DNA of 59,438 nucleotides, counting the filler, from Dugesia japonica (Eukaryota): assembly GCA_001938525.1 (NCBI GenBank). It is 6 parts of 6 records of this genome, joined end to end, with 100 filler letters (N's around TTAATTAATTAA, not from the genome) between each part and the next. Parts side by side here need not be neighbours in the genome. Positions count along the whole stretch, not along the records: positions 19,581 to 28,882 come from MQRL01648284.1; 5 more parts are not named here. One strand, written 5' to 3'. Below, piece by piece: positions 10,751 to 44,857 of the stretch. The first letter of the stretch is position 1. The number at the start of each line of letters is the position of its first letter. The notes under the pieces were generated by a model. It was not told the origin of the DNA, searched no databases, and saw only the letters and a list, made by a program, of their open reading frames with translations. The position numbers were made by a program, and so were the translations under genes.

Positions 10751-11029
10751 AATGTGTGAAATTAATCGTTTTGATATTGAAAAGTATTCGGATTATTTTC
10801 CTAAAAATAGGTATTTATAAGTAAAGCAATTTCTTTAAATACCTAGCGATATTTAAAGCATATGTATAAAATTTTCCTTTACCAGCTAATAAAAGTTTAA
10901 AAATAAATTAAACTTTTCCAATTATTTGTAATTATATAAAATTAAATTCTTTTAAGCAATACCATTTCAAATTAAGTAAGTGTGATAGAAAACTTTAAAA
11001 GCGAATTAAATTATTTTAATAAAGCTTAC

Positions 11030-14000
11030 CAAGGTAGCATTTTGACTCCGTCGATCTTCTTTAGCAGTAGAAAAGATTTTCTTTTTTGCTAAATTAGCTG
11101 CTTGTCTACATGGTTTAGAAGGCATATTTTGAATTATTTGCAAAATTTTTTGATTAGCAGTTTTTCCAAATTCATTTTTATTGTTATCATCAGATTTTTG
11201 AAGAGAGAAAACAATTTTTTCAGAATGAAAAGAACTACCTTCTAACTTTGACAAGTCTTCATTAGTTGATTTAAAAAGTTTAATTTTAATCGGTTTCTGA
11301 TATTGAGAATCATCATTAGATCGAGATTCTGAGGTTAAATGAGATATTTCTTGATTTAAATAATTTCTTAAATCTTGATTAGTATTATAAACATCAGAAC
11401 AAACTGTATCATGATTTAAAGAGTATTTCCTTTTTCTATTTTTGCGTTTTATTTCATTATTAAGTTCAGCTAGTTTTTCATATTCTTCAGAAGAATTCAT
11501 TTTATAAGTTATATCATCAGATCCAATTATACTACTAAGAAAATGCCTCAGTTTCTTACGCTTTTTCGAATTTTTTTTATGTTTTTTAATATTCGTTGAT
11601 TCTTCTAATTGATCAGGATCTTTTTTTTGAACTTTAATTTTTAATGAAAATGAACCATAATTCCTAGAAAAAGTTTCAACGTTATTCGAATCTAAATACG
11701 TGTTAAATTCATGATTTGGAGAATCATTTTCAACATTAATGGATTCATTATCATCATTATCAAGATTTTCATTGTAATCTTTAGATTGTAAAACTAGATG
11801 CGTAATACTATCTTTTAATAATTTGACATTTTTATCTAATTTGCCAGAATAATTTCTATAACAATTCAAAATAATTTTAGATTTAGATTTTAATTTATTC
11901 TTGAAAATTCTGTGAACACTTTTTCTCCATAAAGATTTTTTTATAATTTTGTAAACATTAACTTTAGTTTTAATCTTCTTCAAAATAGACCCTTTTAATT
12001 TTTTAAAAACATTTCTTTCAATTTCTTTTAAATTAATTGAATTTATAACATCAATCGCAGAGGTCTTAAAATTATTTCTGAATGAATTTTCTAAATTTGA
12101 ATCAATTTCCTCTTTGTTATTAATCATATCACTGTTAACTGAATTAGACGATACACTTAAATTAGCAATTATATCATTATGGGATAGTTTTTCAATAGAA
12201 CAAATTGGCGTTTTTAATTTAATATTATTTATAAGATCATTATCATTCTCTAAATTAATATCATGATGTATTTCTGATTTTTTGCACAATCGATTAAATA
12301 ATGGTCTTTTTATTTTTTCTTTCCGTTTTACAAAATTAGTTTTTTGTCGGCATTTGGTTCTTAAGGAATATGTTTTTTGAAAATCTGATACTTCATTTTG
12401 TTTCTTTACAATTGGTTTCTCAAAATTTTTTGATTGATTCGACATATTTGATAAATTTTTATTTTCGCTTAAGTTACTATCAATTAAATTATCATATTCT
12501 TTCCTTTTTATATGACTGCTGTGATCAGAAATTTCATCTATTTCAACGATAACTAACGGAGCATCTAAACTTTCAATATCATCTGTATCTGAAATCGGTT
12601 CATCAGTATTATTAAAACTCTGAATTTCAATAGTGGCACTATAAGAATCTGGAATAAACTGATTATACATCGAAGTATTAATCAATATATTGCTAGGTTT
12701 TATAACTTTTGCAAATTGACTGCAACATTGAAATCTACAAGGAAAATCGTTTAGACTCATATCTATCAAAGATGCATATTTTATATTGTCGTTTTTCACG
12801 TTTGATTCTAAGCCACTGTAAATTCTCAGTTTTTTATTAATTTTTCGAACTGGATAAAACTTTTTATTAATAAACTCTGAGGTGTGATTATAAGCGTAAC
12901 GCTTATTTTCCACAAAATTTGCAGTCTGGCAGACATTAACGTTAACCGTTGGATATAAAAAATTCTCTATCACAGATTCAATAATTATAGCTTTATTTTC
13001 AAAGAAAGCTAAATGGAAATCTATGTTTTCATATTCATCTGCATTATTTTTTATCATAGCATTGTTAATATTGTATTGCAGGAGTTTGGTTTTTCTGAAT
13101 TTCCTCATTCTCTTAAATTGATTAAGTTTACTATTACTTTTTAAAGTATCTTTTTTATTAATCTCTGACATATTTTGGACATAATTATTTTTACTTCTTT
13201 GAATTTTCACATAAGAGTTGTGTTCTATAAAGTGTTCATTTTCACGCTTAATTGAAATGCTATTCTTTCTTAAATTGTATTTTCTGATAACGTTTGAGTT
13301 TTTATAATCAGATTTAAATTGATTTAGAATAGTTTTTGAGAAAGGAGGTATTTTTATGTTTGAAAGACGAACATCAATATCATCATTTGTTACAATATTT
13401 GAATTATCAATTTGAGTCTGTAGATTGGATAGTTGATCGATATCTGTACAAGAATTAGAATTACTAATCATATTAATATCGATAAAATTTTCACTTGATT
13501 TTTTTTCTGATAATTCATGAGAATTTAATGAAATTAAATTCAATGAAATTTCTTTGTTAGAAATATTCTTTTGTGGAACTTTGCTTTTTGAATTCGAAGA
13601 AATTTTGTGTCTTGAAATTGCCTCATAAAATGAGTCAAAGGATTTAGATATAGAACCTTTGGAACGAGTGCATCGCTTAAAATCTGTACTTAACTTTTGC
13701 TTTTCTGAAAATTCAGCCTTTCGCTTAGAATTCATTTTTTTATCAATAGCTATAGAAAATTTATTTTCAATAAAATTAATAGATTGATAAATGGCCAATT
13801 TTTTAGGAGGTTTTCTAAGACGCCTTTGCCTATCTCTTGGAATATCAAACATATTTTCAATTTTATTAATTTTAAATTCTTTAGGAGGATGAATTACTTT
13901 TTCGGATTTTTTCCCTTTCTTCTGTTTTTTTAATGTACTACATACTGTATTTTTAACTTTGTATTTCTGTGATTTATTTATGGGACAATAATCAACATCT

Positions 14001-17000
14001 AACTCATCAGTTCTAATCTTTTGGATTTTATCTTTAACATTATCTTCAATGAAACTTGTAGACATGTTTTCAAAATCTTTTGTAATATCACAATTCATTT
14101 TTGTACAAATCATATTTGTTTGATTTCCAATTAAAATTGTTTTTTCATTATTATTTTCGATGTTGCTTTCTAACACTACTAACATATTAAAATCATTTTC
14201 CGTTTTATCATTTAATTTTGTATTACAAATTACATCATCAACATTTTTAAAAGAAATCGAACCATCTTCCGACGATTTTGTCAAATTGTGAAAATCCTCA
14301 ATTGACTTACTTTCACAACAAACATTGTCATTTAAAACATGTTCTTCGCTTCTTAAATTTACTTTAGAAAATATATCGAGTATTTTAAGTTCGTCATTAC
14401 CAATATACCAATTTTTAGACTGATTTTGAGTTAAGTCATATTTTTGAAAAAGTTTTAAACTTGGTGTATTTTTTATAAAATCATTAAAGTACAATTTTTT
14501 AGTGAGATCAAATTGTATTTTTTTCATTTTATTTATTCTACTATTAAAATAATTAAACCTTGAAAATTTAAAAGCATATTCATCGATATCTTCATCCTCA
14601 CTTTCATTATCTGATTGTATAGGTGTAGCATCTGATATATCTTCTAAAATAGGTGGTTCAATATATTTGTTGTCATCATCAATAATAGTATTTGCTGATT
14701 CATGATTTAAGGTTTTCATATTTAAAGAAATTTCTCCATCTGTGCAAAACTCAAATAAACCAAAATCATCTAATGTTTTAGACTTTAATGCAGAATCAGT
14801 AACGTAGAATGATGACTCGTTGTTACGCTTTGAATCGAAATTTATTGACATCAAGCATTGAGTTTTTTCATCTAATAATGCATCATTTGTAGAAGAATAA
14901 ATAAGCTCTATAGAAGTATTAGGAATAGTACAAAAGCTAATAGTATTATTAGTATTATTACTAAAGTTTGCTTCCGAAATATGATCATTTTCTTTAGAAA
15001 AAATATCTATTTTACTTTGACCATCCGAGCTTTCACACATACTATAAATCTTAGACTTAAGTGTTGCTTCGGAATCTTGTTGTGAAGAACTACATGATAT
15101 TTCAATTTGTTTGGCAATCTCCGAAAGTTCGTTAGATTCTTTTATATTCAAATCTATTTCCTTCTCTGAATCTTCAATTATTAAATTAGATCGGCAATTT
15201 GAATCTATGTCTTTAAGAATGTTATCATTAATTTTTGAAATTATAGGACATTCAATAGTTGTCGGTAAAGAAACAGGAATCACAGATTGAGAATCGCATC
15301 TTATAAGTTCATTTTGATGACTACCACTATATTGTGCGACAAATTTATCAAGAAAAGCATTCTCTTCTTTTTCAAGTTCAGTCAACATATCTTCAGTATT
15401 GAGATTAACAACTTCAGCAATTTCAATGCACTGTGGCATTTCAATATTGGATGAATTATTTGAATAATTATTTAAATATGTAGAAGTTGTTACTGATGGT
15501 AAAACTGTACTACACGGGGGTAAGGTAGTGAAAGAAGATGCATAAGATACTCTGGAATCAATGTTTATCTGGGTTGTGGAACACCTAGTTAGTTCTGTAA
15601 TATCATCCTTTTGAATATTTTGTAAAAATTGGTCGAGAATTTCACTTGACACAAAACCATCTGTACCCAAGTTGCTGGCATCATATAAATTGTACGCAGT
15701 TGTAAAATCATCAGTATTACTTAACTCTGCATTAGATATTTCCCAAGCCAAGGAAAGAAGATCTTTTTCGCCAGAATCAGAATTATCCAATAGAGTATTT
15801 GAATTAATTTCGTTAAAAGAATGTGATATAGCAACATGCGGCTGATTTAAATAATCTGATGAATCGTTATTTACATAATAATTGCATTGATATGTACTAC
15901 GGGTATTCAAAGAATTATTGCAGTTTTGTTTCAGTGAATTATTTTCATTATACTGACATGCCTCTTGACTATCTATACTATGCGTTGAAGAAGCATAGCT
16001 GGAATTTTTATGGGATTTTGCTGGAGCACCTCTCTTACGACCAGATTTTTTACCTTTATTACCTTTGCGTCTGCCAGGACCGGATGGGGCCGGAAGCGTG
16101 GAACTATTCAAGCTATCTTGATTGTTAATTGATGTATTTGGACTACTCGTTTTGGGAGCAATTAACGGCTGGCGATATGTTGGTTTAGAAGGTTTTGGAG
16201 CTATAGCTCTCATTTTTTTACCAGCTGTTATATTAATATTTGAGGACGGACTATAAAGTGAAAGCAACTGATTTGACATTAGTTGACCAGTATTCATATG
16301 TATTGATATAGGATTAACACCAGATGGTTGAGAAACTGGAGTTAGAGGTAAATTTAAAGGTAAAGTTATTGGCTCACCAGGTTTGAAATTTGAAGGAATA
16401 TGAAGCAAAAAATTCCCAATACCTGGTAGTTGAACCTGAACAGATTGTTGAGACATGCTTAACGTATTTATTGACTCCACATTTTGTAATGTAGAATTTG
16501 TGATCTGATACTGTGACAAAGTATTGTTCAATGAATCATCAGGATGCTAAACATTTAATTAATAAAAATGATATTCAAAATAAATAAAAATTTAAAAAAT
16601 CTCAAAATTCGTCATTAAACGATTTATTTATTTAAATTAATTAATATTAAAATGCTGAATTAGTTTCGAAAAATTCAAACAGTTAAAATTTCCTTCTTTT
16701 AATTCTAAATGATGATTTAATCGAAAATAATTCTATATAATTTTTAAATTAAAAAAAATTGAATGTCTAAATAAGGAGTCAGCATCCATTTTTTAGCTGC
16801 GGATCAAAGTAAAAAAAATGTGACTATTAAGAATACTATTCGGGTCACTGGATATATATACACATTAATAAAAAATCATCTTTTTGTTTTTTTTAAATAA
16901 CTCAAAGATTATTCTCGTGTTGCAATGAAGTTTAGAATGTAATGTAATTGAGATTAACCAAAAATAAAAATATATAAATTAAAAGAATTGTGCATAAAAA

Positions 17001-19580: not shown

Positions 19581-22500
19581 TGCACCAAATATGTTTAATA
19601 AAAATAGGAATAATAAATCAAAAAGTTCTGAAAAAACCGAAAATGGATAACTGTGGGTAAACAAGAAACAAGAACATGCTTTACATGTGGTAAAAAAAGG
19701 CCATATAGCTAGAGATTGCAATATCAAAAAATGTTTAAGGTGTGTAGGCGATCATCTTAAAAGAAATTGCAAATGAAACAAGCAATCTAAGATATTATTA
19801 TGAAGAAGACGAGCAAACAGAATCCGTAATCAATGAGAAACCAGGAGAAGAAGATTACAGCGATCAAGTGAATACGATAAGTGAAAATAAATCATCTTGG
19901 AAGATTCAAAAATATACTGAACTAATTAAAACGTTTAAACCGTCACTTGAAGATAAGTATGTCAATTTTATCGAAGGAAATGAAGCAAGGCCCAGACAAC
20001 ACTTAAAAATATGAACTAACACTAATATCAGTGTCAAGGCCAGAAAAAGCAACAAATAAACCAATTTTTGAATGTCAGGTTGCAGGGATACCAGTAAAAA
20101 CTGTTTGACACGGGCGCTGATTTGAATGNTATAAGCCAGGAATTAGCCGATCGTATCTGCAAAAAGAACCCTGATGTTAGAATTTTTAAATCTTTGACAA
20201 AAGTAACATGCGCAAATGGTACAACAGAGGAATGTTTTGGGAAGATACAATTAAATACATCAATTGCACTTGTAATGACAGCACACGAGTTTGATATTAT
20301 ACCGAATATATTTCCACGTCTATATAATGGATTAAGAAGCATGAAGAAATACGAAATAATGGTGGATGCAGCAAATGATGGAATAATAATACNNNNNNNN
20401 NNNNNNNNNNNNNNNNNNNNNNNNNNNNNNNNNNNNNNNNNNTTTTAAATCTTTGACAAAAGTAACATGCGCAAATGGTACAACAGAGGAATGTTTTGGG
20501 AAGATACAATTAAATATGTCAATTGCACTTGTAATGACAGCACACGAGTTTGATATTATACCGAATATATTTTCACATCTATATAATGGATTAAGAAGCA
20601 TGAAGAAATACGAAATAATGGTGGATGCAGCAAATGATGGAATAATAATACAGAATATTAAGATTCCATTTATTTCAAAAACAGTTCTACCTGAGTCAAT
20701 ATTAAAATAACACCGACCGTGTTAATGAGTTGTAATACGGGATTCGAAAAATTAGAGACTCGTGAGATTTATAATGATAATCAATGTTATAGAATTGCGG
20801 TATCTGAAAACGTAGATTTAAGTAGAATTAGTGAATATTTTATCAGAGGCATGATAATAGACCACTCAGATCAGAAAATTACTTATGATACGAGTAAAGA
20901 ATGGATTTTCACTGGACATAAAGAGAAAATAGAAAAAACACAGATGGAACTGCAATCGAAAATAATGGATACATGTGGGTAAGAATATATATGTTAGAAG
21001 GCGGATGTAAATCTTTACACACCGGAACTACACTCGAATATGTAGAAGAATTTAATCAAAATGAAAAAGTGTTTGAAAAAGTATCACTTAGACAATTTTC
21101 CTATGAAAAATAAAGAACAGAGGAAGAAATTACAGACAATATACTGCAGAAAATTAAAAATGCTATGGAAGTTACAAACAATTACTACGATATAGTCAAA
21201 ACATTAGTAATCCTTGAAAGGAATAAATATGTATTTAGTCGATATAAGATGGATGTGGGTAAAACTTATATGATTGAACATAAAATAGAAACAACCGATA
21301 GCAGATCAATGGAAGCCACGAAGAATACCGAAAGGACTCGATGAAGAAGTAGAACATATGGTTAAAGATTGGATAGATATTGGTGTTGTAAAGCCGAGTA
21401 CTTCTCCATGAAACTGTCCAATTGTAGTGGTGACAAAGAAAAACGGCGATAACTGTATGTGTATCGACTACAGGGCACTGAATGCTAAAACAAACCGACC
21501 AATATTTCCAATACCATCATCAGAGGAAATACTTGACAGTATTGCTGGAACTAACTATTTTTCAACTCTAGACCTTTTGAGTGGATAACACCAAGTGCCG
21601 ATAGCTAAAAAAGATCAGGAAAAAACAGCATTCCGCACAAAGTTTTGACAAAACGAATTTGCCAGAATGCCGTTTGGATTATGCTCAGCACCAGTGACAT
21701 TTCAGTGGCTTATGAATATTGTATTGCGAAATGAAAATTGGAACAAGTGCGTAATATAAATAGACGATGTTTTAATATTTGGTAAAACTGTAGAAGAGCA
21801 TAATGAAAAACTAGATCAAATATTAAGAAGAATAAGAAAAGCTGGACTTAAATTAGCAGGAAAAAATGCAATATCTCGGACATACAATAACTAAAAATGG
21901 AATCGCAACAGATCCTGATAAGATAATGGCAATCCAAAAATGGGAGATTCCTTAATGTCNNNNNNNNNNNNNNNNNNNNNNNNNNNNNNNNNNNNNNNNN
22001 NNNNNNNNNNNNNNNNATTCATAAAGAATTATTCAAATTTATTAGAACCTCTCAGTTCAATGCTAAAGAAAGAAAACAAATTTCAGTGGAAAGATGAAAA
22101 TAAAAAATATTTTTACAAGCTACGTAAAATGTTGACAGAACCACCAGTGCTAGCTTTGCCAACAGGATGGAAAATATATCTTGAATACAGATGCTTCTCG
22201 CAACACAATTAGTGCGGTACTTTCTCAAGTATAAGATGGCGAGAAACGAGTATTATACTATGCATCGAAAACACTAACAAAAAGTCAGAAACAGTACTAC
22301 ATCACAAAAAAAGAGCTTCTGACAATATATGTGTTTGTCCTCAAGTTTAAGCACTATTTAATGGGATCAAAATTTGTGGTATGAACAGATCATCAAGCAT
22401 TAAAATAGATGCTTAATTGGNNNNNNNNNNNNNNNNNNNNNNNNNNNNNNNNNNNNNNNNNNNNNNNNNNNNNNNNNNNNNNNNNNNNNNNNNNNNNNNN

Positions 22501-23045
22501 NNNNNNNNNNNNNNNNNNNNNNNNNNNNNNNNNNNNNNNAGATTGCGACTAGTGTTTAATAAAAGATGAGGATCCAAAAAGGAAAAGAAACGTTAAAATA
22601 TACATATATATAAAATTACAGTGCACAACAGACAAAGATGAGGAACAAAGTATACGCTTAGAAAAAGTTATAAATAAAATATTTCAAGAAGTCAAATGGG
22701 AACTAAGAAAATATATAAATATATGAATAATATTACAGGCTCTAGAAAGAAACGAGAGAACACTTCGTGACATATAGGTAAATAAGGAAATACAATCGTA
22801 TTTGGATAAAAATAAAGAACTGCGAATACTAGGTGAGAGGCTATATTTAGAAAAGGATGAGAAATATCTTCTTATTGTGCCCAGACATAAAAGAGAAGAT
22901 GTCATTTTGAAATATCATAAGTCAAAGGTGACCCAGGAGTAGAGAAAACAATAGGAATTATTAAATATGAGTATTATTGGCCGTGTATGGATAAAAACAT
23001 AAGTGAACAACTATCAAAATGTAAACAGTGCAATGCGCATAAATA

Positions 23046-23300
23046 TGTTGGGGTTCCACCTGAGTTAGATGGAGAAAAGTGTGACTGGGGAATGAAGGCG
23101 GTGACATCATCGTTATCGTCCCAAGGGACCCAATCTGGGTTGCCAATCTGGCGAGAAAGATCGGCGATATATTGTTTTAAAAATTCGATCTTTCTCAGTA
23201 GCAATTGCTTGGTTTCGACTTCCAATGCTTTGGTTTGGACTGCTAGATCGTTCTGCTTCTTCACGATTCAGTCCAACCTCTTTATCAATCTATCCGTCTG
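23046..23300 (-). pseudogene. Coiled-coil-like ORF running off the element terminus
   Basis: QTDRLIKRLD*IVKKQNDLAVQTKALEVETKQLLLRKIEFLKQYIADLSRQIGNPDWVPWDD..GGTPT reaches the end at 23046 without a stop. Confidence 0.4.
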
Positions 23301-23611
23301 GGTCTGTCTTACGCTTCAAGTGGCGTTATAACAACAGTCGGCGCATGATGCGATGACATCGGTGAAGACTGTTAGGAAAATTGATACGAGGCACTGAAAG
23401 AAATTAGATTAATATATAAGCAATTAACTGCGAAACTCAGATAAACAATAGAATAAAAAGTCTGAACTCATAAAACCATTGAATAATAGATTTATTTANN
23501 NNNNNNNNNNNNNNNNNNNNNNNNNNNNNNNNNNNNNCCCTTCTCGATCATCAATGGCTCGAGAGGTATTTTTTCCCGGAGTAGTAAGATGTCGTTAACC
23601 AGTTTATTTTC

Positions 23612-23874
23612 TCAGTCATGGCTGGACCGGATAATTTCCGAAAAAGATTCAACCTGCTTCTTCCAGGTTCGTTCCTGCAGGTGTGAGGCTTCAGCTTCCT
23701 TTTTGAAAGCGATGCATTTCTTCCTATATCTAGTCACTTTACTATTGGCAGCTGCTATTTCCGCCTCCCAACGACGTTTGGCTAACTTATACAGATCCCA
23801 GGTGAGATCAAGGTCTTCACTGGTTTCCCGCAGCTTTTTATTTGGAGCCTGTGATTTAGACAGGGAGGAATGCA
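23612..23874 (-). CDS. Coiled-coil-like ORF or exon of the TG...CA element
   Basis: Open frame of ~87 codons with heptad character (LAKRRWEAEIAAANSKV..FKKEAEASHLQERTWKKQVE) following a TTTCAG acceptor at 23876-23875. Confidence 0.4.
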
Positions 23875-24034
23875 CTGAAATATGATTTTTTATTAATTAC
23901 GAAGATAAAAACAAGACAGCAACTTAATGTTACTGGAAACAGAAATTTATCTTAATCTACGCGTGAAGATATAATATAATTGAACTCTAAACAAGACACC
24001 TATTTATTCGTATTCTAAAACAAAACAGCATTCA

Positions 24035-24388
24035 TTAGGGATTATTATTAGTGTCAACATTTGGTGCTGTATTTTCACTATCGGACACTCTAGTTGGCAT
24101 CTAACCCCCCCAGAGAAGGTTAGAGATGAAGGCCTGTAACGCTGGAGCTAGGAGTGGCATTGTAGGCTGATATTGGAAAGGTGTCGCAAGGGTGCGATCA
24201 GGACCTGTCCAGGTTTGATACTGTTGTCGCTCTCCGAAATCCCGTATTCGGGTGACGATAGACTCGACATGGGGTAGGTTGGACCTATCGGCCAAAATAC
24301 CCGCGTCACGGTTGTGTGGGTTGTGATGTCGCCGGAAAATTACTCGACGGGTTCTTCTATCCACTACCCTCTTCCATATAGACTCCAT
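24035..24388 (-). pseudogene. Unknown ~117-aa protein MESIWKRVVDRR... with one internal stop (24103-24101)
   Basis: Homolog at 35428..35784; similarity continues past the stop (SDSENTAP vs EDSENTAP); TTTTTCTAG acceptor 2 nt before the ATG. Confidence 0.65.
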
Positions 24389-24532
24389 ATCTAGAAAAAC
24401 GAGAAGAAAACGGTAAAATTCGAATAAAACAGCATTAATAAGTAAAGACAATTTATATATATGGTTAAGACAACATTACAAAGACTTTTTACAGATTCTC
24501 TCTTGACAATGGAGTGCTAACAAGACGAAAAA

Positions 24533-24715
24533 TCACTCCTCATCTAAATCCACTCTGCTGACCTGGGAAAACGTTACTGCGAGGCAGCATAGGTCAGTCT
24601 CATCCGGATGCTCAATCCCCCCTTTCGTCAGTAGATGAGCTATCAACTGTTTTGTCTGGGCAATTTGACGCTGCTTCTTTATCCAACGTAAGGTGTGACT
24701 CAATTCCGTTGGCAT
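24533..24715 (-). CDS. Small unknown protein MPTEL... (60 aa) of the TG...CA element
   Basis: Intact ORF; same-length homolog at 35927..36109 (MPTEL..LRWIKKQR..AH.LTKG.IEHP.ETDL.CLA..F....VDLDE); pyrimidine tract and AG 3 nt before the ATG. Confidence 0.65.
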   Translation of the reverse strand: MPTELSHTLRWIKKQRQIAQTKQLIAHLLTKGGIEHPDETDLCCLAVTFSQVSRVDLDEE

Positions 24716-27680
24716 GAGCTAAAGAATTGAAAATATCAACCACAGTATGTAATTTATGACTTATTCCCCCGAACAATTAGTCGTCACTGACTGTTATAAA
24801 AGGAAAATAATAATTAATGGCGTGATGCTAATTATGTTCATAGAAACCTCGTTAGGCAAATAATGATAGCCATAACATAGTAATAATAGGTATTATAATA
24901 CCAATAGCAGTGGAAATGAAATTATTTTGGTAATAATACGAATAACCAACATAATGCACGAAGATATAATGATATTATTGCTAATAGTACGGTTAGTAGT
25001 AATTATACAAGCAATCCGAGCTACTAATAAATCGAACAAATTTGCATATACTAATAAAATCCCTAATAATATTAATAGAGGCCAAACTAATCCGGATACA
25101 CCGCTAATCATCATAATTATGATCATCCCACTATCCGTTATAGTAATAATACCATTAATAGTAATTATGGTGATCATAATAAGAATTTACAGTTAACCTA
25201 GATAATAATTATAAAAGCAATTTTATAATAATAATAATTATAATAAGATTAATATTTCTGATATTGATAATATTGATAAAAATAATATTCTTTTATAAAA
25301 TTCTGCCTGTTTATAAAATTTCGTCTATGAGCTCAATTCCGAGTTTTGAAAAATTCCGCTGTTTATGGTTGCCTAGTAGTGGTAACCACTTTCTGATACT
25401 ATCGGATTACACACTGAAAAGTTTGTGTGTGTGTTAACACTTTATCGTATTCACTGAAAAATATATTTTGGTAATCTTGTCATAAATTTCTCTCACTGTC
25501 ATTATGAATAGTACATATTTAGCATCCATGCATGATTGGATTAAGGAAAAAATTATAAAAGCGTGAAACTGAATTACGCTCATAAAAGTTCGGATTGCCT
25601 TTTGAATCATCGGATCATGTGGTTACTAATAAATTTATTTAACTAATAAAGTTGTCCTGCATTCCACTTACTATCAAAAATATTTGGCTAAGAATTTCTG
25701 CAACGGGTTATCTATTCCTCTATTGAAATTTATGATCGATCTTTGGATTGTCGAGAGCTTCAACTGTTCAAAACGATTTTTCTAATTAATTTATACTTCT
25801 GAACAATTTAATTACTATTTACGATGCCTCGGATAACTGGTACGCGATAACTGGTTGTATTTGGGTTTCTTGATGAATATTGATAAATTTGCAGTTACAA
25901 TTTTTTGCGGATAAAAAGATAAAAAACTTTGTGTGTTTCTCTAAATTCCGAGGTCCTTTTATAGGATTTTCTTCACACCCCAACTTCTTCCAGATTTGTT
26001 GGTTATTTTTAGATTGAATTTTTTGACTTTTTATTGGTTCCAGTGCCAATTCTCTAAAATATTCTTCAAGTTTTTTTGCCACGATTGGCAGCTATTTTTA
26101 GAGTGACACATGAAAATTGTGTCTTTTTTTAATTTTATTTTTAGATTTCTTATTGGCCCGATCTTGAGGACCTTGCAGCAACCTTCTGGATGGTGGTAAG
26201 TTTTTTCTTCTTAGCAAGTTCGATGCGTCTTGTTATTTTCTTTCCGTATTTTCTTACCCGGATTCTTTCTGATTTCCTTGAGCGAAGTTATTCGGGTAAA
26301 ACGGATTTTTAACTAATTTTTCTTCTTTTTTATTTCAAAATTAATTAATATTTTTTTGTTAATTAATTATTTTCCTTTAATGATTTCTTAATTTCTCCTT
26401 ATGAATTTAATAATTCTTTTTAATTCCCGTACTGATGTAAGATAATTTTATCTTACCCGGTCCGTCGTATCCATGTTTAATTGTATTTTATTTTTTTCTA
26501 CGGGTTATTTCCATTATAACCCCCTTGACTATGATTGTATTTCCTTTTGGATTTCCTTGTGGGCAGATATAGCGCCTTACTGTTCTTCTTTGCTGATTTG
26601 GGTTTCTTCGGTCTTATTTTTCTTCTTTAATGGGTGTTTCACCCCAACAAATATATTAACGGAAGAATTAAAGCACCATTACAGAATATATCCGAAAAAG
26701 AACCATTTCAAAGTATTGCAATANNNNNNNNNNNNNNNNNNNNNNNNNNNNNNNNNNNNNNNNNNNNNNNNNNNNNNNNNNNNNNNNNNNNNNNNNNNNN
26801 NNNNNNNNNNNNNNNNNNNNNNNNNNNNNNNNNNNNNNNNNNNNNNNNNNNNNNNNNNNNNCATTGGATATCCAAGTTTGGAATACCTAGTCGAATTCAC
26901 TCGGATTGTGGTAGTAATTTTAGTTCAGGTGCATTTGAGAAATATTGCAAGCAATTGGGAATTGTGAAAACATTTTCATCTCCATATTACCATCAAGGAA
27001 TCGGATTAGTAGAAAGATTATTTAGACCAGCGAAACCTATGATTAGTGCAGTACTAGAAGACAGACAAATTCAAGATTGGAGTACGGTGCTACCAATAAT
27101 AGAATATAGATTATGAACAACAACACAAAAAACGACTAAGTACACTCCGTATGAAATAGCATTTTGAAGAAACCTAGAATCAATATGTGGAATGCTGGAA
27201 AGAGGGAAACGAACATCACAAATAACTCTGATCAATATGTAGAACAATTAAAAAGAAATATTATGAATATTCATGGTCATGTAAGAAAAAATATTGAAGA
27301 ACATAATGAATTTACAGCAGCTAAATATGACAAATATCGGCGGAGAGATGAAATTAAAATTGATGATAAAGTTCTGATAAAAAACAATGTACATGATGGT
27401 TTTAAAAGGCGATTTATTGGACCATTTAAATTAATAAAGAAAATTAATGAATGGACTTACACTTTGCTTGATGAAAATAGAAACACTTTAATTCAAAGAA
27501 ACTACAACCAAATCAATAGAATACCAAGAGATGAACTTTCCTACAAGTCCTGGAGCACACAAATATCAGTAAGTAAACAGAAAACAGCCTTACCAGTACA
27601 ACCTGGCCGACAAATTGAGAGTGATATCAGAAGACGTCATCCAGAAAGAATGACAAGGAATCCGAATCCTCAATATCGAT

Positions 27681-29269: not shown

Positions 29270-31013
29270 CAATGTCAAAAGGTATTTTTCCGTATAATTA
29301 TAAAACCAGTTTGCAAGTTCTGGTTGAGACAGTTGAGATTCCATTAATATGGGATGATGTGAAGGAGGAAAATACAACAAGGCAATCAAGATGTGGAGAA
29401 TAATGGGTTGTCAAAATTTGTTAGATTATATGATGATTTATCTAAAGCTTGACATGTTTCTGTTAGCGGACTTCTTTCAGCAGTTTAGAAGAAAATCATC
29501 GTCTCATAATAGTCTGGAGCCCCTGACTTTTATCGGAATACCAGGGATGAGTTGGACATCATCGCTGATGCCATTAGATGAGCCAATGAAACTGTTAAAA
29601 GATAATGAAATGTACACCTTTGAAGGGGGAGTTAGAGGAGGGCTAACATTTGTCAACAAACCTCATGTTGCCTCCAATGAAAACACAAACCTATTATATA
29701 TCAACATTAATAATCTGTATGGGTGGGCATTAAGCCAGAAGCTGCTCTATGCGGATTTCGAGTGGGTTCACAATGGATTAAATGAAATTTTGGAAGAATG
29801 TAAGATGGCGGACCTTGAAACGTTGCCATACAGATACTCATTGGAGGTGGATATGATGATTCCATCATAAACACAGGATTATCTAAACAATCTCCCAGTA
29901 GTAGCGGAACACTAAAGCGCTCCAGGAAGTAAAGTGAAAAAATTAATGTTAACACATTATCCGAAGAACAACTACATCATTCACTGGAGGCTGCTACAAA
30001 GGTATATACAGTTAGGTGTGGAGGTTAGAAAGATAGACAGAGGAGTTCAGTTTAGACAGGGACAAATTTTCAAAAAATATATCGATGCGAATACCAAACT
30101 GCGGTCAGAATCTGAAACCGAATTAGATAAAAATTATTATAAAATGCTCAACAATAGCCTATATTGGAAAACGGTTGAGAACCTAAAGAAACGAATAAAT
30201 TTGCACTTGTGTAATTCAGCCAAGAAGTTAATAACATATGCATTGAAAGCTGGATTTCAAAAATCAATAAAAATGATGATGATCTGATAGCTGTTCTTCT
30301 CAATAAGGAAATTGTATGTTTATATCGTCCGAGCTACATTGGACAGACGATACTTGACTTCTCAAAGTTAAGAATGTACCAACTACAGTACATCGAGTTG
30401 GAAAAGGATCGTCAAGAAGAGAATTGTAAAAAGGGTATTGTAGCTTGCAATACGGATAGCCTTTTCCTCGAAGTTGCAGATATAAGTTTGGAAAAGCTAA
30501 CCGGTATGATGCTGAAGGATCAGTTGTTGGACACCTCAAATTACAACACAAGCCACCCCCTTTACAGTAACAGTCCCAACTCTGCTATTAGAAAATTTTA
30601 GGATAAAAGTAAAGGAGTTAAGTGCAAAGAATGGATTATATAGCCTTTTGAGTGATAAAACAACAATGAAGGCAAAAGGCATAACAATAAAGAATAGTAA
30701 TTTAAAACATCAGTCATACCTTGNNNNNNNNNNNNNNNNNNNNNNNNNNNNNNNNNNNNNNNNNNNNNNNNNNAGTGATAAAACAACAATGAAGGCAAAA
30801 GGCATAACAATAAAGAATAGTAATTTAAAACATCAGTCATACCTTGATTGTTATGAAAATAATTTGCCAGTTTCAATAGATTAATTTAGAATTAGTTCGA
30901 TAAACCACCAGCTATATAGTTTTAAAAACAAAAAAGTCGCACTCACTAATAACGACGATAAGCGAGTGTGGACTAAAAAAACATATCAGTACTATATTGG
31001 CATTACACATTAA
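29270..31013 (+). pseudogene. Protein-primed family B DNA polymerase (Polinton/Maverick or beta-adintovirus type), disrupted
   Basis: KGIFPYNY, YLKLDMFLLADFFQQFR (exo III), GGVRGG, YININNLYGWALSQ (motif A), YKMLNNSLYWKTVEN (motif B), NTDSLF (motif C), KAKGI and NDDKR; several stops and frameshifts. Confidence 0.9.
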
Positions 31014-31429: not shown

Positions 31430-31975
31430 TTAAGACAAACAGGATCTAAAATAAATTATGAAAAACATATATGTAATAATAATAAATTTACCTGCATAGT
31501 TATCCAACTTACAACCTTGAATTTCGCTTAATGCCTCCGCCTTAGCAATTAAGTTCAAATCATCCAATATTTGATTTTTTACTTGTTGAGGAATTCTAGG
31601 GACATTTAATTTTATCATTTTCTTTACTGGTTATAAATATCTTTCGTTATATGTCGAAACTGCTTTTGTTTCTAGCACTATCCCTATCGAATTTGTAAAT
31701 TTACCAAGAAGAATGTTTTCTAATTTGTCCGAGTCGAATGACATTTTTTCTTCCTCATCATTATATTTTGTACATATATCGAGAGAGTCTAAAATTTGGG
31801 CTTGAATTGTAGCCATAAGTCCATCTTGGATTTTTTTCTCCAATTCCCAGGGTTTCAAAATTAATTCGGAGTTAAAGATTTTGGCAATGTGGTTAACAAA
31901 ATTGTTTAATGGATATCTTTTATCCATTTTCGTTCTTCTTGCCACCTTGCATGTTTTCAAATACTTAAAGTTCAA
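31430..31975 (-). pseudogene. Unknown ORF(s) inside the Polinton-like relic
   Basis: Two adjacent ORFs (114 and 62 aa) of coding-like composition between polB and the small Polinton ORF; no motif recognised. Confidence 0.35.
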
Positions 31976-32776
31976 CGTACAGGTACCCCTTGTTTTTGTC
32001 CATATTGTTGGAAGTTTGAATTTGTATTTTATATCTACCTATTTATATAATCAATGTGGTAAAATGTGTCAAATTGTGTATAAATTACACATATATTAAA
32101 TGACTATGTATATAATAAATGTAGCATAATTAGTGACTAGGCTTACTCTATTAAATATTTTCTGGTAAAATATGGGAAAATTTGGCAAAATATGAGAAAA
32201 TTGGGCAAAGTCAGGCAAATCAGGGTAAAATCATGGTAAACTTTGATTATAGATTTAATATCTATTACAAAACAATCATAGACTTTGTTCCAATAGCTTT
32301 CTTGATTCCAATTTTGAGTTAGTTTCTTTAGATTTTTAAATTTACTTTCCAAAATGGTTTTTATAATTTCTAATAAATTAATTAATATAGTTAATAAAAA
32401 TAAACCATACCTTTCCCTTCAGTATATATAAATTCATTGTTTTCAGAATCAACATACCAATTTTAATCATCTGATTTTTCTACAAAATTTAAATATTCTC
32501 TTTCGTCTTCGCTATAATTAGGCCATGATTCTTTTTCCATTAAATTTCTAATTTGTTTGCTCATTATTCTTATATATTCTAATAATAATTCGATTTAGTT
32601 TATAGTTTCTGAAAACTAATATTATAAGTTTAATTGTTTTAATACAGTGTTTGCATGAGATGAAAAACTTTAAAATTTATTTAAATAATAATAACAATAA
32701 TCATTATAATAATTATCAAACCTTTTTCAAAGACATATTAATCTTCAATATACTCTTCATATTTTTACACATAGAT

Positions 32777-33615: not shown

Positions 33616-33644
33616 ATATTGTTGTTTATATATTGTTGATTATA

Positions 33645-34305
33645 GGTTAATATATTTGGAATCAGCAAAGAATCTTCTATCGAATAGATACTTTGTAAAC
33701 CTATTTGAGAAGGAAAATAATTTTGAAAACTTTTTATTTGTGAAAAATGATTGCAGTAAAATTCTCAGCAGTTTGGTATAAAAATCTTTGAAATCTGAGA
33801 TATAGAACATATATTTTTAAAAATGTGTGAAAAAATTTCATTTAAAAAATTTCATATTATGTAAGCAACATAGGCTGCTCACCTGGATCTCATAAAGAAT
33901 CTTATAAAAAATTTTTAAAAAACTTGAAAATTTAAACAAATATAACATTTTACACGAATTTCCTTAAAAATCATCCAAGCTGACTAATTCTGAGGAAAAA
34001 TTAGACCAAATTCACCTAAACTAGTCAAAAATTGACCACATTCTATCTCACCGAATAAATTCACAACTAAATACACAAAAAAATTTCTTCCGCTTAAAAA
34101 GCCTAAAAAATTCTCCCAACTAAATACACATGAAAAATAAAAATACTTACTTAATCCGATTACGTAAATTTCTCGACGATGAAATTAATCTTGCACACAT
34201 AAATTTTGTTCGTCGCCTATTTACATTAAAAAATACTGGATCACTTATGTAATAAGCCGAATTCGTAAAGGGGGAGAGGATTATCCAGTCCACTACTATC
34301 TATCT
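33645..34305 (-). repeat. Probable right terminal repeat of the Polinton-like element, ending ...CTACTATCTATCT
   Basis: Homologous in inverted orientation to 6795-8140 with the same simple-repeat AG end; lies downstream of the polB cluster. Confidence 0.55.
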
Positions 34306-35427: not shown

Positions 35428-35784
35428 TCACGAAGGAGGAGTTGATACATCCGGTACGGGTGCGGTATTTTCGGAATCTTCACTGCCCGAGGGCTCCCTT
35501 ATGCCTCAGAGCAGGTTAGTAATGAAAGCCTGTACCGCGGGAGCTGGAGTTGGGGTGTGAGGCTGATAATAAAAAGAAGTCGCCAGAGTGCGATCAGGAC
35601 CTGTCCAAGCCTGTTATCGTTGACGCTCGCCATAATCTCTGATGTGCTCGTCGATGGATTCCACCGGAGGCAAATTAGACCTGTCACCCAAGATTCCCGC
35701 GTCCCGATTGTGAGAGTTGTGATATCGTCGAAAGATTATTCGACGACTTCTTCTGTCCACTACCCTTTCCCATTTGAATTTCAT
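35428..35784 (-). pseudogene. Unknown ~118-aa protein MKFKWERVVDRR..., copy 2, with two internal stops
   Basis: Frame continues through the stops: QAWTGPDRTLATSFYYQP..QAFITNLL*G..DSENTAP. Confidence 0.65.
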
Positions 35785-35926
35785 CTCTGAGAATAACAAA
35801 AGAATGGTAAACTCACATAACAAAGTATCAAGATGTAATAAATAATTTATTTTTAAATAGTTAATACACACAAAAGAAAGAAAAAAAAATCTATTTATTG
35901 TCATAAGGGTCTCAATAAAACAAGAG

Positions 35927-36109
35927 TCATCCCTCGTCCAAGTCCACTTTCCTCTCCAAAGGAAACATCTCGGCGAGACAATAAAGGTCTGTTTCATATG
36001 GGTGCTCAATTTTCCCTTTTGTCAGCATATGAGCCAACAACTGCATGGACCGACTAGTTCGACGCTGCTTTTTTATCCAACGCAGGACACGGAGCAATTC
36101 CGTCGGCAT
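35927..36109 (-). CDS. Small unknown protein MPTEL... (60 aa), copy 2
   Basis: Intact, aligns without gaps to 24533..24715; TTTCTTTCTTTAG acceptor 2 nt before the ATG. Confidence 0.65.
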   Translation of the reverse strand: MPTELLRVLRWIKKQRRTSRSMQLLAHMLTKGKIEHPYETDLYCLAEMFPLERKVDLDEG

Positions 36110-38116
36110 GGCTAAAGAAAGAAACTATTAATCGCATTGTTTATCTCAACACGCGGTTCCCAAAAGCAAATGGTTTTTCTTGGAGGACATTATTATTAAG
36201 GGAATTATAACCAAGTATCAGTGGCGTTTAAGAAGACGTTCAATTAAGACCATAATAATCTAAGTAACATAATAATAATCTTTACGACACATATCGACAT
36301 GACCCTAAATAGTAGCACAATTATTGTGATAGAACTACTATTAATAAAATTTATTCTTTATAATTGCGTGAAAACATAGTGATAACTTTGATATCGAACT
36401 ACAACCATCCTAGTTCCGACCATTAATCCCTTGAATAATTTTATATATAAGGCTGTAATCCATGATAATGTAAGGTGAATACTGATTTGTTATAGGTGGA
36501 TAAAGTAAAAATTTTTATAGACGGCTTTTTACTAATAATATCTCTAGTAAAAGTAATAATAAAAACCCATAAAATTACTATTAATAATCATAAAATAAAG
36601 TACCATGATTAAATTAAAGATTTCATTATATTTAATATTTTAAATTTTTTCACGTTATCGTTACATAGCGACGGTTTCCTTAGTAAACTGGTCATTACCA
36701 AATTTTTCCAAGTTTCTGTGCGTGAACACCACTTCCTTATAAGTGTGTATAAGAATCTAATTTATACATAAATACCAAATTGATGCCATGATTATCTCAG
36801 GGAATCTACACACACCATCCCATGATTCGGCGATTAATGCTAATTCTGTCGTTATTTCCAATTTAATCACTATCACTATTAGAAAATAAGATGTTTATTT
36901 CGACTCTAATAGTGGATTTGGTGAAACATAAAAGAAAAGGAGTTTCATGAACGAGTGGAAATTAGCTGAATAGAGTGTGTTACCCTCCGATACCTGACTA
37001 TGGAGATTCTTGAATTGAAAATCAACCGAGGTAAAATATATATATTTTTTAATAAACGGTTGAAATCTTAGTTTCTCTTTTAATCATAATTCAGTAAAAA
37101 GAAAAAAAACAAAATTGTTCATGTTTCTAGTTGATGGTGAACCGGTAATCTAATTGTGGTTCAATGGTTTAGCTTCATCATTTTTTCTCGTGCGCATCAT
37201 TTTCATTTTAACGAGCAAGGGGCGGAACATGCCTTCGTTTTTCTGTTTTCTGTAATTCACTAACTAATGGATCGAAAATTTATAATACCTAATTTATCAT
37301 TTAGATAAACTATCTGTTATACTTAAGATCTTTGGTAACAAAATCACAAGTTAAGATTTCTAACATCGATACATTTATTGAAGTATTAATATTTAAATTT
37401 TTTTAGCATAACATTTTTTACAATCAAAATAAAACTTTACTTTTTTAGAACAAATTTAGGAATTTCTTCAACAGTTCAAAAGGGATTGCCGATGCTAAGT
37501 GTATTCTTTATTTGAGTAATGGTTTTCTTTGGTGGTGATTCTCTTGTCCTTGAAATAATGTTAATCAATACTCAATGAATAGTAATTTNNNNNNNNNNNN
37601 NNNNNNNNNNNNNNNNNNNNNNNNNNNNNNNNNNNNNNNNNNNNNNNNNTAGCTAATAAGAATATGTCGTTTGTTAGTTAGTTTGTTAGTTTGTTTGCTA
37701 AATTCCGGGGGGTTTTTTATACAATATCTAAGACACCCCGACTTGTTTGCCATTGGTCAGTTATTTTTAACACATTTCCATTGGCGTTGCTGCTACTTCT
37801 CTGAAATTTTGTAGAGTTTTCTGTGATTCCGTTGGTCCTTATTTTTGGATTATCAGGTGAGCTTTTTTCAGGTTCTCATTGGCTCAATCTTCCAACACTT
37901 GTGACGGTCCTCCTAATGGTCGCAACGTTTTCGGACTAAGAAATTTTGTGGCCCGATACCAATCTTGATTCAAATTCTCTTTCTCCGAGTACTTGTGACT
38001 TTCTGGGGTAAAGTTATTTGAAGAAAACGGATTTGGGTTTCATTTTCATTGAATTTTTCCGCTTAAATAATTGATATGTTCTTATAGTAGGGAGCTTAAA
38101 CTAGTTAAGCTTAAAC

Positions 38117-38548: not shown

Positions 38549-39381
38549 TATTATTCGTATCCACAATAATTTTATCAATTGTTTCGTAAGAAATTAACAA
38601 TTTAATTTTTTGATCTAATCAATGTTTTTAAAATATAAACGCTATACGTCTGTTGCTAAAATAATCATAGGAATGCTTTTTATAATTTTGCTCTCAGGTT
38701 CTGGATTTTTTGTGGTACCCCAAAGTGGCAGAATTTTGTCTTTATAATATTGATAGTTTTTGTTGTATTTGTCCGAGTTTTGATTTTTTATCCTATAGTT
38801 CATATGTGAATTTATATTCACCGGTTTATAATCTATTTCTTTAATCGCGCTTTGAGTAGGGTTAGGTATTTTATAGAATTTTGTNNNNNNNNNNNNNNNN
38901 NNNNNNNNNNNNNNNNNNNNNNNNNNNNNNNNNNNNNNNNNNNNNNNNNNNNNNNNNNNNNNNNNNNNNNNNNNNNNNNNNNNNNNNNNNNNNNNNNNNN
39001 NNNNNNNNNNNNNNNNNNNNNNNNNNNNNNNNNNNNNNNNNNNNNNNNNNNNNNNNNNNNNNNNNNNNNCGGAAGCGCGAGTTACGAAATCAAATCCTCC
39101 AACCCAATTAATAGTAGTTACATATTTAGAGCTAGGGTTTTATCCGGTATGTTCGATGTACTTGCCTATACCATTAAATAATCCCCTACTGTTATATACA
39201 GGTATGTAGGTCTATAGAAGGTGTTATGTGGAGGAATTTCAAATGTATATTTATGTGAATATATACCTATTTCTATCGTAGGCCAAGAGCCTTTCCTAGG
39301 TGATAAATACGTGAAGTCTGCTGAACAGCTTGTTATAATCGATAATAATATTAGTGACATGATTGGTAATGAATTTTGTGA

Positions 39382-42300
39382 TTATGATCTGAGATGATAT
39401 TTGTATGGTTTTGGGGTTATCATTTCTGTTTCTGCTAATTTGCACCTATTGACTGCAACTACTGTAGGATCATCATTTTTGTTCTTTATCACTTGTAAGT
39501 TTGTATCTGTTACTTTCACTAATTCGAAAGGTCCTTTAAATGGTCTGGCCAGTTTGTTTGTTAAACCCTTTTTTGAATTTGGAGTCTTTATTTGCACTTT
39601 ATCTCCAACTTTAAATTGATGTGGTTTCGCACTTTAGTCATAATAATCTTTGTACTGTTCTTGTTTGAATTTTACTCTCAATTCAGCTTGTTTATAAACT
39701 TCCTGTAATCTTTCCTGCATTTTCGTGACATAATCCGGATTTTCCATGTATTGTGATACAATAGGCTCGAATGTAACATCTATCGGATTGTGATTTTTTC
39801 TCAGGTACATTAAGTAGAATGGTGAATATCCGGTTGCTTCGTTTTCTGTTGTATTATGAGCAAATAGTGCTGGTTTGATAAATAAATCCCAATCATTTTG
39901 ACTTTTGTTGACAAATACTGATAGTCTGTTGCATAGTGTATTATTAAATCTTTCCACAAGACCGTCTGTCTGTGGGTGGTATGCTGAAGTATTTATTTTT
40001 TGAATATTAAAAATTTCGTTGACTCTTTTAACTGTTTCGCGGAAGAAATTTCTACCTCTGTCTGACAGTAAATTTTTTGGGTGCTCCATATTTAAAAATA
40101 ATTTTCTCTACTAACAACTTTGCAACTGTTTCCACTGATTCGTCTTTGGTGGGAAATGCTTCGGCCCACTTTGTAAAATAATCGCTAAATACCCAAATAT
40201 GTTTATTTCCTTTTATCGTAGTTGGTAATTTGCTTAGGAAATCTATAGTGTATATCTCCAATGGGGCTGGCATTGGATGAAGTGGTACTTTTGTTTTTGT
40301 TCCAGTGTTCTTTCTAGTTGCACATATAGAACAAGCTTTGCACCATTGTTTTACATCTTCTTGTAAGTTTTGCCAATAACATTTTTGTAAAATTCTAGAT
40401 GCTGTTTTTCTACTTGACAGATGTCCACCAAGAGCACCATCGTGATATTGGAGAAGTAACATCTGCTTTAATGAATAAAGTACACCCCATAAATATTTTC
40501 CCATATTGTCATACACAAGCAGATCCTTGTATATCTTATATTTTGTATTTTCATTGAGAATATTTCGTATTGATTTGATGATTTTATCTTTTCTTTGTTC
40601 ATCTGAGAAAGTTTTATCGTTTATACCTTCGGCTATCATAGCCATTAGTTCTATTATTTCTACTTCTTTTATATTAGGAATTCTTGATAATGCATCAGCA
40701 TTTCTATTAGCTCTTCCGGGTTTATATTTAATTTTTATATTCATATCTTGGATTTTCATAGCCCATTTTAGTATCCTGCTGGATGTATCCTTGTTTTTTC
40801 ATAGGCCTTCAAGTAGTTTATGATCTGTTCGTATAGTAACTTCTGTTCCATAAATAAATGGTCGAAATTCTTTCAATGCGTATATTATTATTATTATATT
40901 ATTATATCCACTTACGTCTGTCATGATTATAAATGGTTTGTTGAAATCTGGATATCTCAATATTGGTGGTGTTATTAATTTTTCTTTTAACATTCCAAAG
41001 GCTTTCTGTTGATTATTCCCCATAATTTTTGTAACTTTGATGAGCTTTCATCTATTTTTTCGGTAATCATCACATTCTTACTTTCTCCTTTTGTTTTTAA
41101 TCCTTTTGTTAATTGCACTAATGGGGCGTATATTTTGGCAAAATCTTTTATAAATCGTCGACAGTAACCAACTAATCCGTTATAACTCTGTAGTTGTTGC
41201 ACTGTTTTTGGTATTGGGAAATGTTTTACTGCTTCTATTTTGTCTGGATTTGGTTGCAAACCTTTTGATGAGACAATATGACCTAAAAATAATACCTGTT
41301 CCTCCGCCCATTTAAATTTTGTTAGTTTCAGTTTTATATTTGCTTTTTGTAATCTGGATATCATGTTTTCTATGTTTATCAAATTTTGTTCAAATGATTC
41401 TCATACGATAAGAATATCGTCCATATATACTATTACATGTTCCACATCTATNNNNNNNNNNNNNNNNNNNNNNNNNNNNNNNNNNNNNNNNNNNNNNNNN
41501 NNNNNNNNNNNNNNNNNNNNNNNNNNNNNACCGTCTTCTGTTACAAATGCAGTTTTTTCTCTATCTTGTAATAACACTTTTAGACCATAAAAACCTTTGT
41601 TAGTATCGAATATAACAAACCATAATGCTTTACTTAATTTATTAAATTGCTCTTGTATTTTCGGGAAAGGGTGTGTATCTTTCTTGGTGACTTCATTTAG
41701 TTTTCGATAATCTACACACATTCTGATTTCTCCATCCTTTTTCTTCACTGGCACTACTGGTTATGCCCATGGAGAGAAACTTTGCACTATTATTCCGTTG
41801 TCTTTCAATTCTTTTATTTGTCGCTTAATTTCTCTCAATTTATTTGGTGCAACATATGGCCATTGTTTAATTGGTTTAGCATTACCTGTGTCAATGGCAT
41901 GTTGTATAATATCTGCTTCACCCATATCAAATTCATGTTTTGCTAAAACATCTTCATATTTATCTATTACTGCTTGTAATTGTTGTCGTTGACACGCTGT
42001 TAGATTACTATTGGTTATTTTAGTTTTATCATAAAACTTGGTTTGCTTAGTTATGATTTTGTCATAAATTATTGTCTCTTTTACTATTTAATTTTGTTTT
42101 CTAGGGTTATTATCGTTAATTGTAATTTCATTTATTTCACAATCTTCGTTTTTTACATAAAGTTTACCTAATTTTATACCTGGAAGAAGATTAACGTCTT
42201 GATTATTATAATTAGCAATTCTTATGGGCATGTTTCTCTCTTTTGGTACAAAGCATCTGGGTACTATTGATATATTACATTTTTGCTCTAATTGATAATT

Positions 42301-42750: not shown

Positions 42751-42979
42751 AGTATCTCCATTTATTGCATATATCTCGTGAGAGTTTTGTGGTGCAGTAT
42801 ATCTTATTATTTTTTTGTGTTCAAGGTTTGATTTTAATTCATTAAGTTTATCTGTTTCTGATTGATTAGGTTTGTTAATGTAATTGTTTAGTTCTGTATT
42901 CTCATCTCTGTTTGATAGATCAATTGTGTATGTTTGATTTTGTATTTCTAATTTGCTGATTATATCCTGGTGTTTTTGC

Positions 42980-44650: not shown

Positions 44651-44857
44651 AATTCTCAAAAGTTTTTCGCAACTTTAACTATACTGTGAATTTCGTTTCA
44701 ACTCACGAATCTAAATTTCTAATTTCGTTTCAAAAACTATCTTATTCAAATTTCGCTTATATCAAAAGTTTTATTGGGTTTTATTTCAATTTTATTTTAT
44801 TTAAAATTTCGTATTAAACACTTGTATATTTGAATATATATATTATTTGAATCGGCT

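Follow-up and report, generated by a model that had tools for sequence, protein, structure and literature searches.

We found that a 3604-bp insertion in the genome of the planarian Dugesia japonica is likely a solitary long terminal repeat (LTR) of a Ty3/gypsy-type retroelement, and that two of the small open reading frames inside it, ORF-A and ORF-B, are under purifying selection. In the reading that we propose, a TATA promoter within this solo LTR would produce one RNA, the leader of which would be spliced in cis to alternative acceptors to give one mRNA per accessory gene. We regard this complete reading as evenly poised between right and wrong. All positions refer to the window, the whole stretch of 59,438 nucleotides that was analyzed (assembly GCA_001938525.1; filler letters included).

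The insertion interrupts a gypsy integrase on the plus strand, which breaks off after its zinc finger at 23045 and picks up again at 26650:

22921 to 23045, plus strand: zinc-finger (H2C2) part of the host gypsy integrase, cut by the insertion (Pfam Integrase_H2C2, E 2e-08)
23046 to 26649, minus strand: the insertion, a likely solo LTR of 3604 bp, with ends TGTTGGGGT / ACCCCAACA and a flanking 4-bp direct repeat, AATA
26650 to 27679, plus strand: continuation of the host gypsy integrase (…APLQ…EPF…, rve core, SH3-like tail), itself decayed

Read across both flanks, the integrase has 4 + 8 = 12 residues from its Cys pair to PL, the same as in the other integrase of the window (counted from CSIC). 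The ends of the insert, TGTTGGGGT and ACCCCAACA, form a 9-nt perfect inverted repeat; they read TGTTGGG and CCCAACA and match the LTR consensus TGTTRNR...YNYAACA (PMC3601003). The AATA target-site duplication is present on both sides of the insert, at the break of the integrase frame, and its length of 4 bp is within the 4- to 6-bp range of Ty3/gypsy-type LTRs. Of 309 TG..CA pairs in the window, 7 combine inverted ends of 9 nt with a repeat of 4 nt, versus 3.0 in shuffles, and this insert is the only one of the seven that fits the consensus. The motif TGTTRNR alone is common and is not enriched in the window. The ends of the insert convince only through their position in the integrase break. 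A solo LTR is the best reading of the insert, and we infer both its origin and its orientation as an LTR. No full-length parent element, primer-binding site, or polypurine tract for it was seen in the window.

The insert contains a TATAAAA promoter with CCAAT and GC-box-like motifs, as expected of the internal Pol II promoter of an LTR; its activity is predicted. This region has a counterpart in a second copy of the sequence (copy 2), which is 70% identical to the insert (copy 1) over 639 nt. The elements are as follows, with a slash at predicted splice points:

25957 to 26090, minus strand: core promoter with CCAAT boxes (26088, 26037), a GGGGTGT box, and TATAAAA at 25963, aligned with copy 2
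25672 to 25935, minus strand: predicted non-coding leader exon, with no ATG, ending in A; start site placed about 30 nt below the TATA
25666 to 25671, minus strand: splice donor GTAAGT, the sole perfect one on the minus strand of 23046 to 25960
37715 to 37885, minus strand: copy 2 promoter, with CCAAT at 37882, 37784, and 37756 and TATAAAA at 37721
37435 to 37441, minus strand: copy 2 donor-like A/GTAAAG, aligned with the donor of copy 1 to within 1 nt, and weaker

The TATA, GGGGTGT, and CCAAT motifs align between the two copies. From the TATA at 25963 to 25662, copy 1 is free of ATG, and gaps of at least 290 nt make up only 14 of the 1912 inter-ATG gaps in the window. The predicted leader of about 265 nt ends at A/GTAAGT (25671), 9 nt ahead of the first ATG; this was the one perfect GTAAGT among 10 donor-like sites scanned. 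In copy 2, the A/GTAAAG sits behind a 16-nt anchor common to both copies. It fits only 2 of 4 intron positions, and the donor scan did not list it. An intron of a host gene in the window (the ARM/TIR gene described below) uses the donor GTAAAT. The terminal base of the leader is A in both copies. Copy 2 has no matching or recognizable termini, lacks the segments described below as C and D, and ends in simple repeats and gaps; both copies are decayed. A main promoter at this TATA would give a transcribed part (R-U5) of 2.9 kb, which is unusually long for an LTR. Several AATAAA signals lie downstream of the TATA, as expected in AT-rich DNA, and none is assignable to R/U5. At 23411 to 23418 on the minus strand, about 23 nt above the TTTCAGTG motif of segment D, there is a TATATATT. 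This could be a second promoter that makes D the R/U5 region, an alternative layout of the LTR.

Downstream of the leader are two small reading frames, found in both copies:

24533 to 24733, minus strand: acceptor and ORF-A of copy 1, 60 aa, a predicted two-helix hairpin
24032 to 24405, minus strand: acceptor and ORF-B of copy 1, 95 aa to the first stop, with a conserved in-frame tail to codon 117-118
35927 to 36126, minus strand: acceptor and ORF-A of copy 2, 60 aa, intact
35428 to 35801, minus strand: acceptor and ORF-B of copy 2, with internal stops at codons 57 and 93 and the last stop at codon 119

ORF-A has the same length of 60 aa in the two copies, with 63% identity and a dN/dS of 0.129 between them; for ORF-B (about 95 to 118 aa), the identity is 73% and the dN/dS is 0.118. 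The two other sense frames of A and B gave values of 0.8 to 1.7. Codon third positions of A and B are 54% and 49% identical, and first and second positions are 74 to 83% identical. A dN/dS of 0.13 and 0.12 between the copies indicates purifying selection, and therefore ORF-A and ORF-B are genuine genes; selection and conservation here rest on two copies and one outside protein. This protein, P0001, came from a representative protein library; it is a homologue of B, with 94 aa, 38% identity, and an E value of 2.7e-10, and it begins at the same Met. The first stop of ORF-B is at codon 96 in copy 1, and the tail stays in register between the copies to a shared stop at codon 119. Since the tail is in register beyond the earlier stops, both ORF-B copies are probably decayed. 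Alternatively, the B protein may terminate near codons 93 to 96, like the 94-aa P0001.

Further searches yielded few relatives. The library search gave four matches in all, and the other three (P0002 to P0004) are repeat-rich proteins that we judged spurious. A profile of B matched only P0001 among 128 candidates, and a protein search with B alone gave 0 matches among 1 candidate. There was nothing in Pfam for A or B, no usable match for either in the ESM Atlas, and no match to profiles of A and B among PDB sequences. None of 10 window proteins had an exact match in a protein sequence collection. No loci related to the genes of the insert were found in metagenomes or viral contigs, and each of the 8 metagenome matches to a motif was attributed to chance. 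AlphaFold modeled A as two helices (best pLDDT 78.8; four other models 57 to 66). Foldseek with this model gave no match at an E value of ≤0.001 and six weak ones (E 4 to 9); five of the six were to histone folds of the CENP/MHF kind, a likeness that we did not accept. The N terminus of B has a WW-like look, to which Pfam gave no support. Neither A nor B has an evident transmembrane stretch. A and B match no known protein family. If their roles resemble those of retroviral accessory genes, they would most likely act as regulators, either of the host cell or of element RNA.

A preliminary description of this DNA had drawn attention to splice acceptors just ahead of the ATGs of these frames, and all four are present on the minus strand: TTCTTTAG/CTC ATG (24715) and TTTTTCTAG/AT ATG (24388) in copy 1 and TTCTTTAG/CC ATG (36109) and TTCTCAG/AG ATG (35784) in copy 2. 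The further TTTCAG acceptors that it placed ahead of coiled-coil frames, at about 23876 and 23395, are also there, directly preceding 23874 and 23393 (segments C and D). Its point that the acceptors are kept although the intergenic DNA has diverged held in part. The AG is kept; the spacers, which are 64 to 69% alike, have diverged but are still alignable and homologous, so that AG retention is less surprising. The A-B spacer is 69% identical between the copies versus 58% for shuffles, and 0 of 300 shuffles matched its score. YAG within 0 to 3 nt before an ATG is common in the window (177 of 1964 ATGs, 9%). Requiring at least 10 pyrimidines in 12 makes it rare (12 of 1964, 0.6%), and of the 153 ATGs that open at least 50 codons, only the four A and B sites carry it; this pyrimidine threshold was set after the sites had been seen. 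A branch-point-like YTRAY lies 19 to 24 nt upstream at 5 of 8 acceptors and 45 to 48 nt upstream at 2, and it is absent at 1. The spacers have 23 to 29% GC and 43 to 51% T, and A, B, C, and D have 45 to 52% GC. All four minus-strand TTTCAGTG motifs of the window fall in the insert, and there are 8 on both strands versus 2.1 expected; the motif was picked after inspection and also resembles an initiator.

These acceptors could be served by the predicted leader or by a spliced leader (SL) supplied in trans. The upstream promoter, ATG-free leader, and 5' donor expected of cis splicing from a common leader are clear in copy 1 and weaker in copy 2. An SL operon is expected to have an outron free of donors, whereas a perfect GTAAGT stands at 25671. 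Thus, the promoter, the ATG-free leader, the sole perfect donor, and the aligned donor-like site in copy 2 favor alternative cis splicing of one leader over SL trans-splicing. It is unlikely, in our estimation, that the gene row of the LTR is instead resolved like an operon by host SL trans-splicing at each acceptor, alone or beside cis splicing. The distances of 2 to 3 nt from acceptor to ATG and the AU-rich spacers of about 140 nt would suit operons, and flatworms and nematodes are groups with SL. The spliced RNA of Caenorhabditis elegans Cer1 bears SL1 (PMC3315495), and a flatworm SL ends in AUG (PMC12582326), a codon that would match the frame of A in copy 1 and the best frame of D. However, such an AUG would miss the frame at 3 of the 4 A and B sites and at C, the perfect donor upstream would be left unpaired, and the stretch between A and B has no conserved poly(A) signal. 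Cis donors are also said to out-compete the spliced leader (PMC4558846).

The preliminary description had left the choice between SL trans-splicing and splicing of a common leader open; common-leader cis splicing is now the favored of the two and SL the disfavored, with splicing itself predicted. Its proposal of a polycistronic unit of separate small genes is supported by the own ATG, the conserved stop position, the purifying selection, and the lack of a shared in-frame donor. It had also guessed at viral accessory genes, a context that the LTR-like insertion provides; it had missed the insertion.

Beyond ORF-A and ORF-B, three more stretches of the insert follow a TTTCAG/TG:

23538 to 23880, minus strand: TTTCAG/TG and coiled-coil ORF-C, without an ATG of its own; 1 stop in 111 codons, running into an N gap
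23046 to 23399, minus strand: TTTCAG/TG and GC-rich segment D, the coiled-coil-like frame of which stays open up to the final base of the insert
24770 to 25419, minus strand: TTTCAG/TG and a stop-ridden hydrophobic frame (M), a doubtful gene, 27% GC

In GC content, C and D are on a par with A and B; they have no ATG at their acceptors, and both start TTTCAG/TG. With A as the last base of the leader in either copy, joining this A to the TG of the exon would create an ATG at the junction. The frame opened in this way is the best frame of ORF-C (1 stop in 111 codons, versus 5 and 14). In insect gypsy, the start codon of env is made by splicing, as AT/G (PMC2585583; bioRxiv 2023.08.03.551782). Segment D does not clearly fit the A/TG model by its sequence: its best-kept frame (2 stops in 116) starts at the junction and differs from the A/TG frame (5 stops). 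D may belong to C as a second exon, the end of C lying hidden in the gap, or it may be the beginning of gag, continuing into the missing internal region. The second layout, in which the frame of D runs unbroken to the edge of the insert as if on into gag, would be Ty1-like. Pfam gave only sub-threshold coiled-coil families for C, and a protein search with C gave 0 matches among 4 candidates. The similarity of M to copy 2 is not significant (12 of 200 shuffles were as good). As M is also AT-rich and stop-ridden, we do not count it as a gene.

The proposed sequence of events runs as follows. Insertion into the older gypsy integrase would have left an LTR with small genes inside. From its TATA promoter, one RNA with a non-coding leader would be made, and this leader would be joined in cis, from the donor at 25671, to alternative acceptors. 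Every accessory gene would thereby receive an mRNA of its own. For ORF-C, the final A of the leader and the TG of the exon would supply the start codon.

The stretch from the donor to ORF-A contains at least 14 ATGs, and unspliced RNA is therefore unlikely to express A or B easily. These ATGs, which would block scanning, weigh against the idea that A and B are genuine genes whose RNAs are unspliced or initiated separately, with the pyrimidine-AG a by-product of T-rich spacers and the TTTCAGTG motifs initiators. We consider this idea distinctly unlikely, more so than SL trans-splicing. It draws on spacers with 43 to 51% T that are 64 to 69% alike between the copies and on the 9% of ATGs with YAG within 3 nt. 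In addition, sORF1 and sORF2 of the MDG1 group are expressed without splicing (bioRxiv 2025.03.14.642691), the Oikopleura Tor3b/4b env has internal promoters (PMC4402516), and TTTCAGTG resembles an initiator, for which the consensus is TCAKTY (PMC3601003). Against it, C has no ATG near its start, and we noted no suitably spaced TATA for the A or B sites.

The least probable alternative is that the insert is a non-autonomous cut-and-paste element with Ginger-like ends, or a captured multi-exon gene whose GC-rich blocks are exons of one protein: TGTNR ends and a 4-bp duplication of an AT-rich site are also features of Ginger2 and are found here, no internal retroelement genes are attached to the insert, C and D could be ordinary coding exons, and at about 7 of 8 acceptors (the exceptions are A1 and D) the longest or ATG frame is opened 2 nt in, but the inverted repeat is 9 nt versus the terminal inverted repeats of about 40 to 270 bp needed for Ginger (PMC2836005), and no Pfam match to an integrase-like transposase was found in A, B, C, or M. 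The AG-to-ATG distance for A is 3 nt in copy 1 and 2 nt in copy 2, a difference in phase that an upstream exon read in frame would not allow. Together with a stop of A common to both copies and the lack of a conserved strong donor, it led us to reject A and B as exons of one protein; the tail of B is also conserved at the protein level to a shared stop. By these sequence features, A and B are separate cistrons.

The proposed LTR with spliced accessory genes resembles several known systems in part. HIV makes its accessory genes from one major donor, and MMTV carries sag in its LTR. These complex retroviruses share with the proposed layout of the insert one 5' donor for many acceptors just ahead of short ORFs (HIV) and an ORF within an LTR (MMTV); unlike them, the insert has several ORFs in one 3.6-kb LTR, downstream of the promoter, and there is no homology. 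The Drosophila gypsy and springer-subclade errantiviruses have an LTR-driven leader spliced to a downstream ORF, a junction-made start codon, and ends of the 4-bp duplication type. In contrast, theirs is one env ORF in the internal region with a split AT/G, whereas the insert has several small ORFs in a presumed LTR, a proposed split A/TG, and no env similarity. Planarian Burro and GYPSM1 and plant Ogre have very long LTRs (1.9 to 6.5 kb in Ogre) and accessory ORFs of unknown function, and Burro and GYPSM1 have an AT-rich animal host, probably of the same kind as here; the likeness to the insert is by description only, and the accessory ORFs that PMC6431247 describes lie in the internal region or polyprotein. 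C. elegans Cer1 and the Echinococcus ta-TRIM solo LTRs are gypsy-type elements in SL-using hosts with spliced RNAs, transcribed and cis-spliced solo LTRs, and 4-bp duplications, but the spliced RNA of Cer1 uses internal exons and SL1, and the ta-TRIM LTRs are short and non-coding. The MDG1-group sORF1 and sORF2 are two small accessory ORFs upstream of gag; they are unspliced and outside the LTR, and sORF2 is a membrane protein, unlike A and B. Long LTRs, accessory ORFs, transcribed solo LTRs, and the splicing of env to an LTR leader (PMC4402516) are already known. Our literature search found no LTR with several selected, spliced small ORFs, each behind its own acceptor, and only the MMTV listing surfaced; the primary Burro description and Repbase, outside the scope of this search, may describe such an LTR.

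The window as a whole is AT-rich (mostly 20 to 32% GC) and gapped and contains host genes and many mobile-element fragments. Linkers of the form N44-TTAATTAATTAA-N44 at 10190, 19481, 28883, 38449, and 50542 are scaffold joins, and adjacency across them is therefore uncertain. A decayed element of the gypsy type occupies 39380 to 44880 (minus strand). Its fusion glycoprotein, which is of mononegavirus type (PF24664, E 4e-15), lies upstream of its protease, RT, and integrase (ENV-POL order), and a TGGTGCCCC near 44873 resembles a primer-binding site. The order GAG-ENV-POL has been reported for Nematoda, Bryozoa, and Platyhelminthes (PMC13524379). Right behind the integrase of this element, at 38642 to 39360 (minus strand), is an extra broken ORF with a signal-peptide-like start. 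We found no link between the ENV-POL element and the insert. We also rejected copy 2 as the 3' LTR of this neighboring element, to the 5' end of which it has no similarity; a scaffold linker lies in between. A third decayed gypsy-like element, with a zinc-knuckle gag, a protease-like part, and later pol pieces, is at 46933 to 50009 (plus strand). Pieces of a DNA polymerase B of the protein-primed kind (PF03175), similar to that of Polintons and adintoviruses, are at 29358 to 30884 (plus strand), and a further ORF without an assigned family is near them at 31631 to 32038 (minus strand). An inverted pair of a repeat family of about 70% identity (6839 to 8144 and 33638 to 34273), with internal subrepeats of about 60 nt (GAGGTCGAATAAGGTCAA), is likely a non-autonomous transposon. 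Near-identical duplications across gaps, at 20184 to 20651 and 30651 to 30846, are probably assembly artifacts. The host genes comprise the ARM/TIR gene (553 to 2346 and 5092 to 5598, plus strand), which has a long helical-repeat exon, a TIR_2 domain split by a 51-nt intron (GTAAAT..TTTCAG), and a probable last exon, and a gene with a single open exon of 1816 aa and low complexity (11006 to 16546, minus strand). A scan of the window found no tRNA genes.

If the splicing is not confirmed, the insert is still long and LTR-like and still contains two small protein families that are new. The insert would also offer a natural test of the competition between a cis donor and a spliced leader. A broader possibility, which we hold only tentatively and think rather doubtful, is that the LTR of this retroelement lineage is a self-contained multi-gene unit with one promoter, a leader whose last base is the A of a start codon, and alternative splicing to four or five genes that belong to new protein families. 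Each solo LTR would then be a complete accessory-gene cassette, in which the choice of acceptor would both select a gene and switch it on. If the proposed model is confirmed, an LTR, usually treated as a non-coding control region, would bear several selected genes and a retrovirus-like splicing program. The split-start-codon device of insect gypsy env would be extended to several ORFs in another lineage, and solo LTRs derived by recombination could go on expressing element proteins in host cells.
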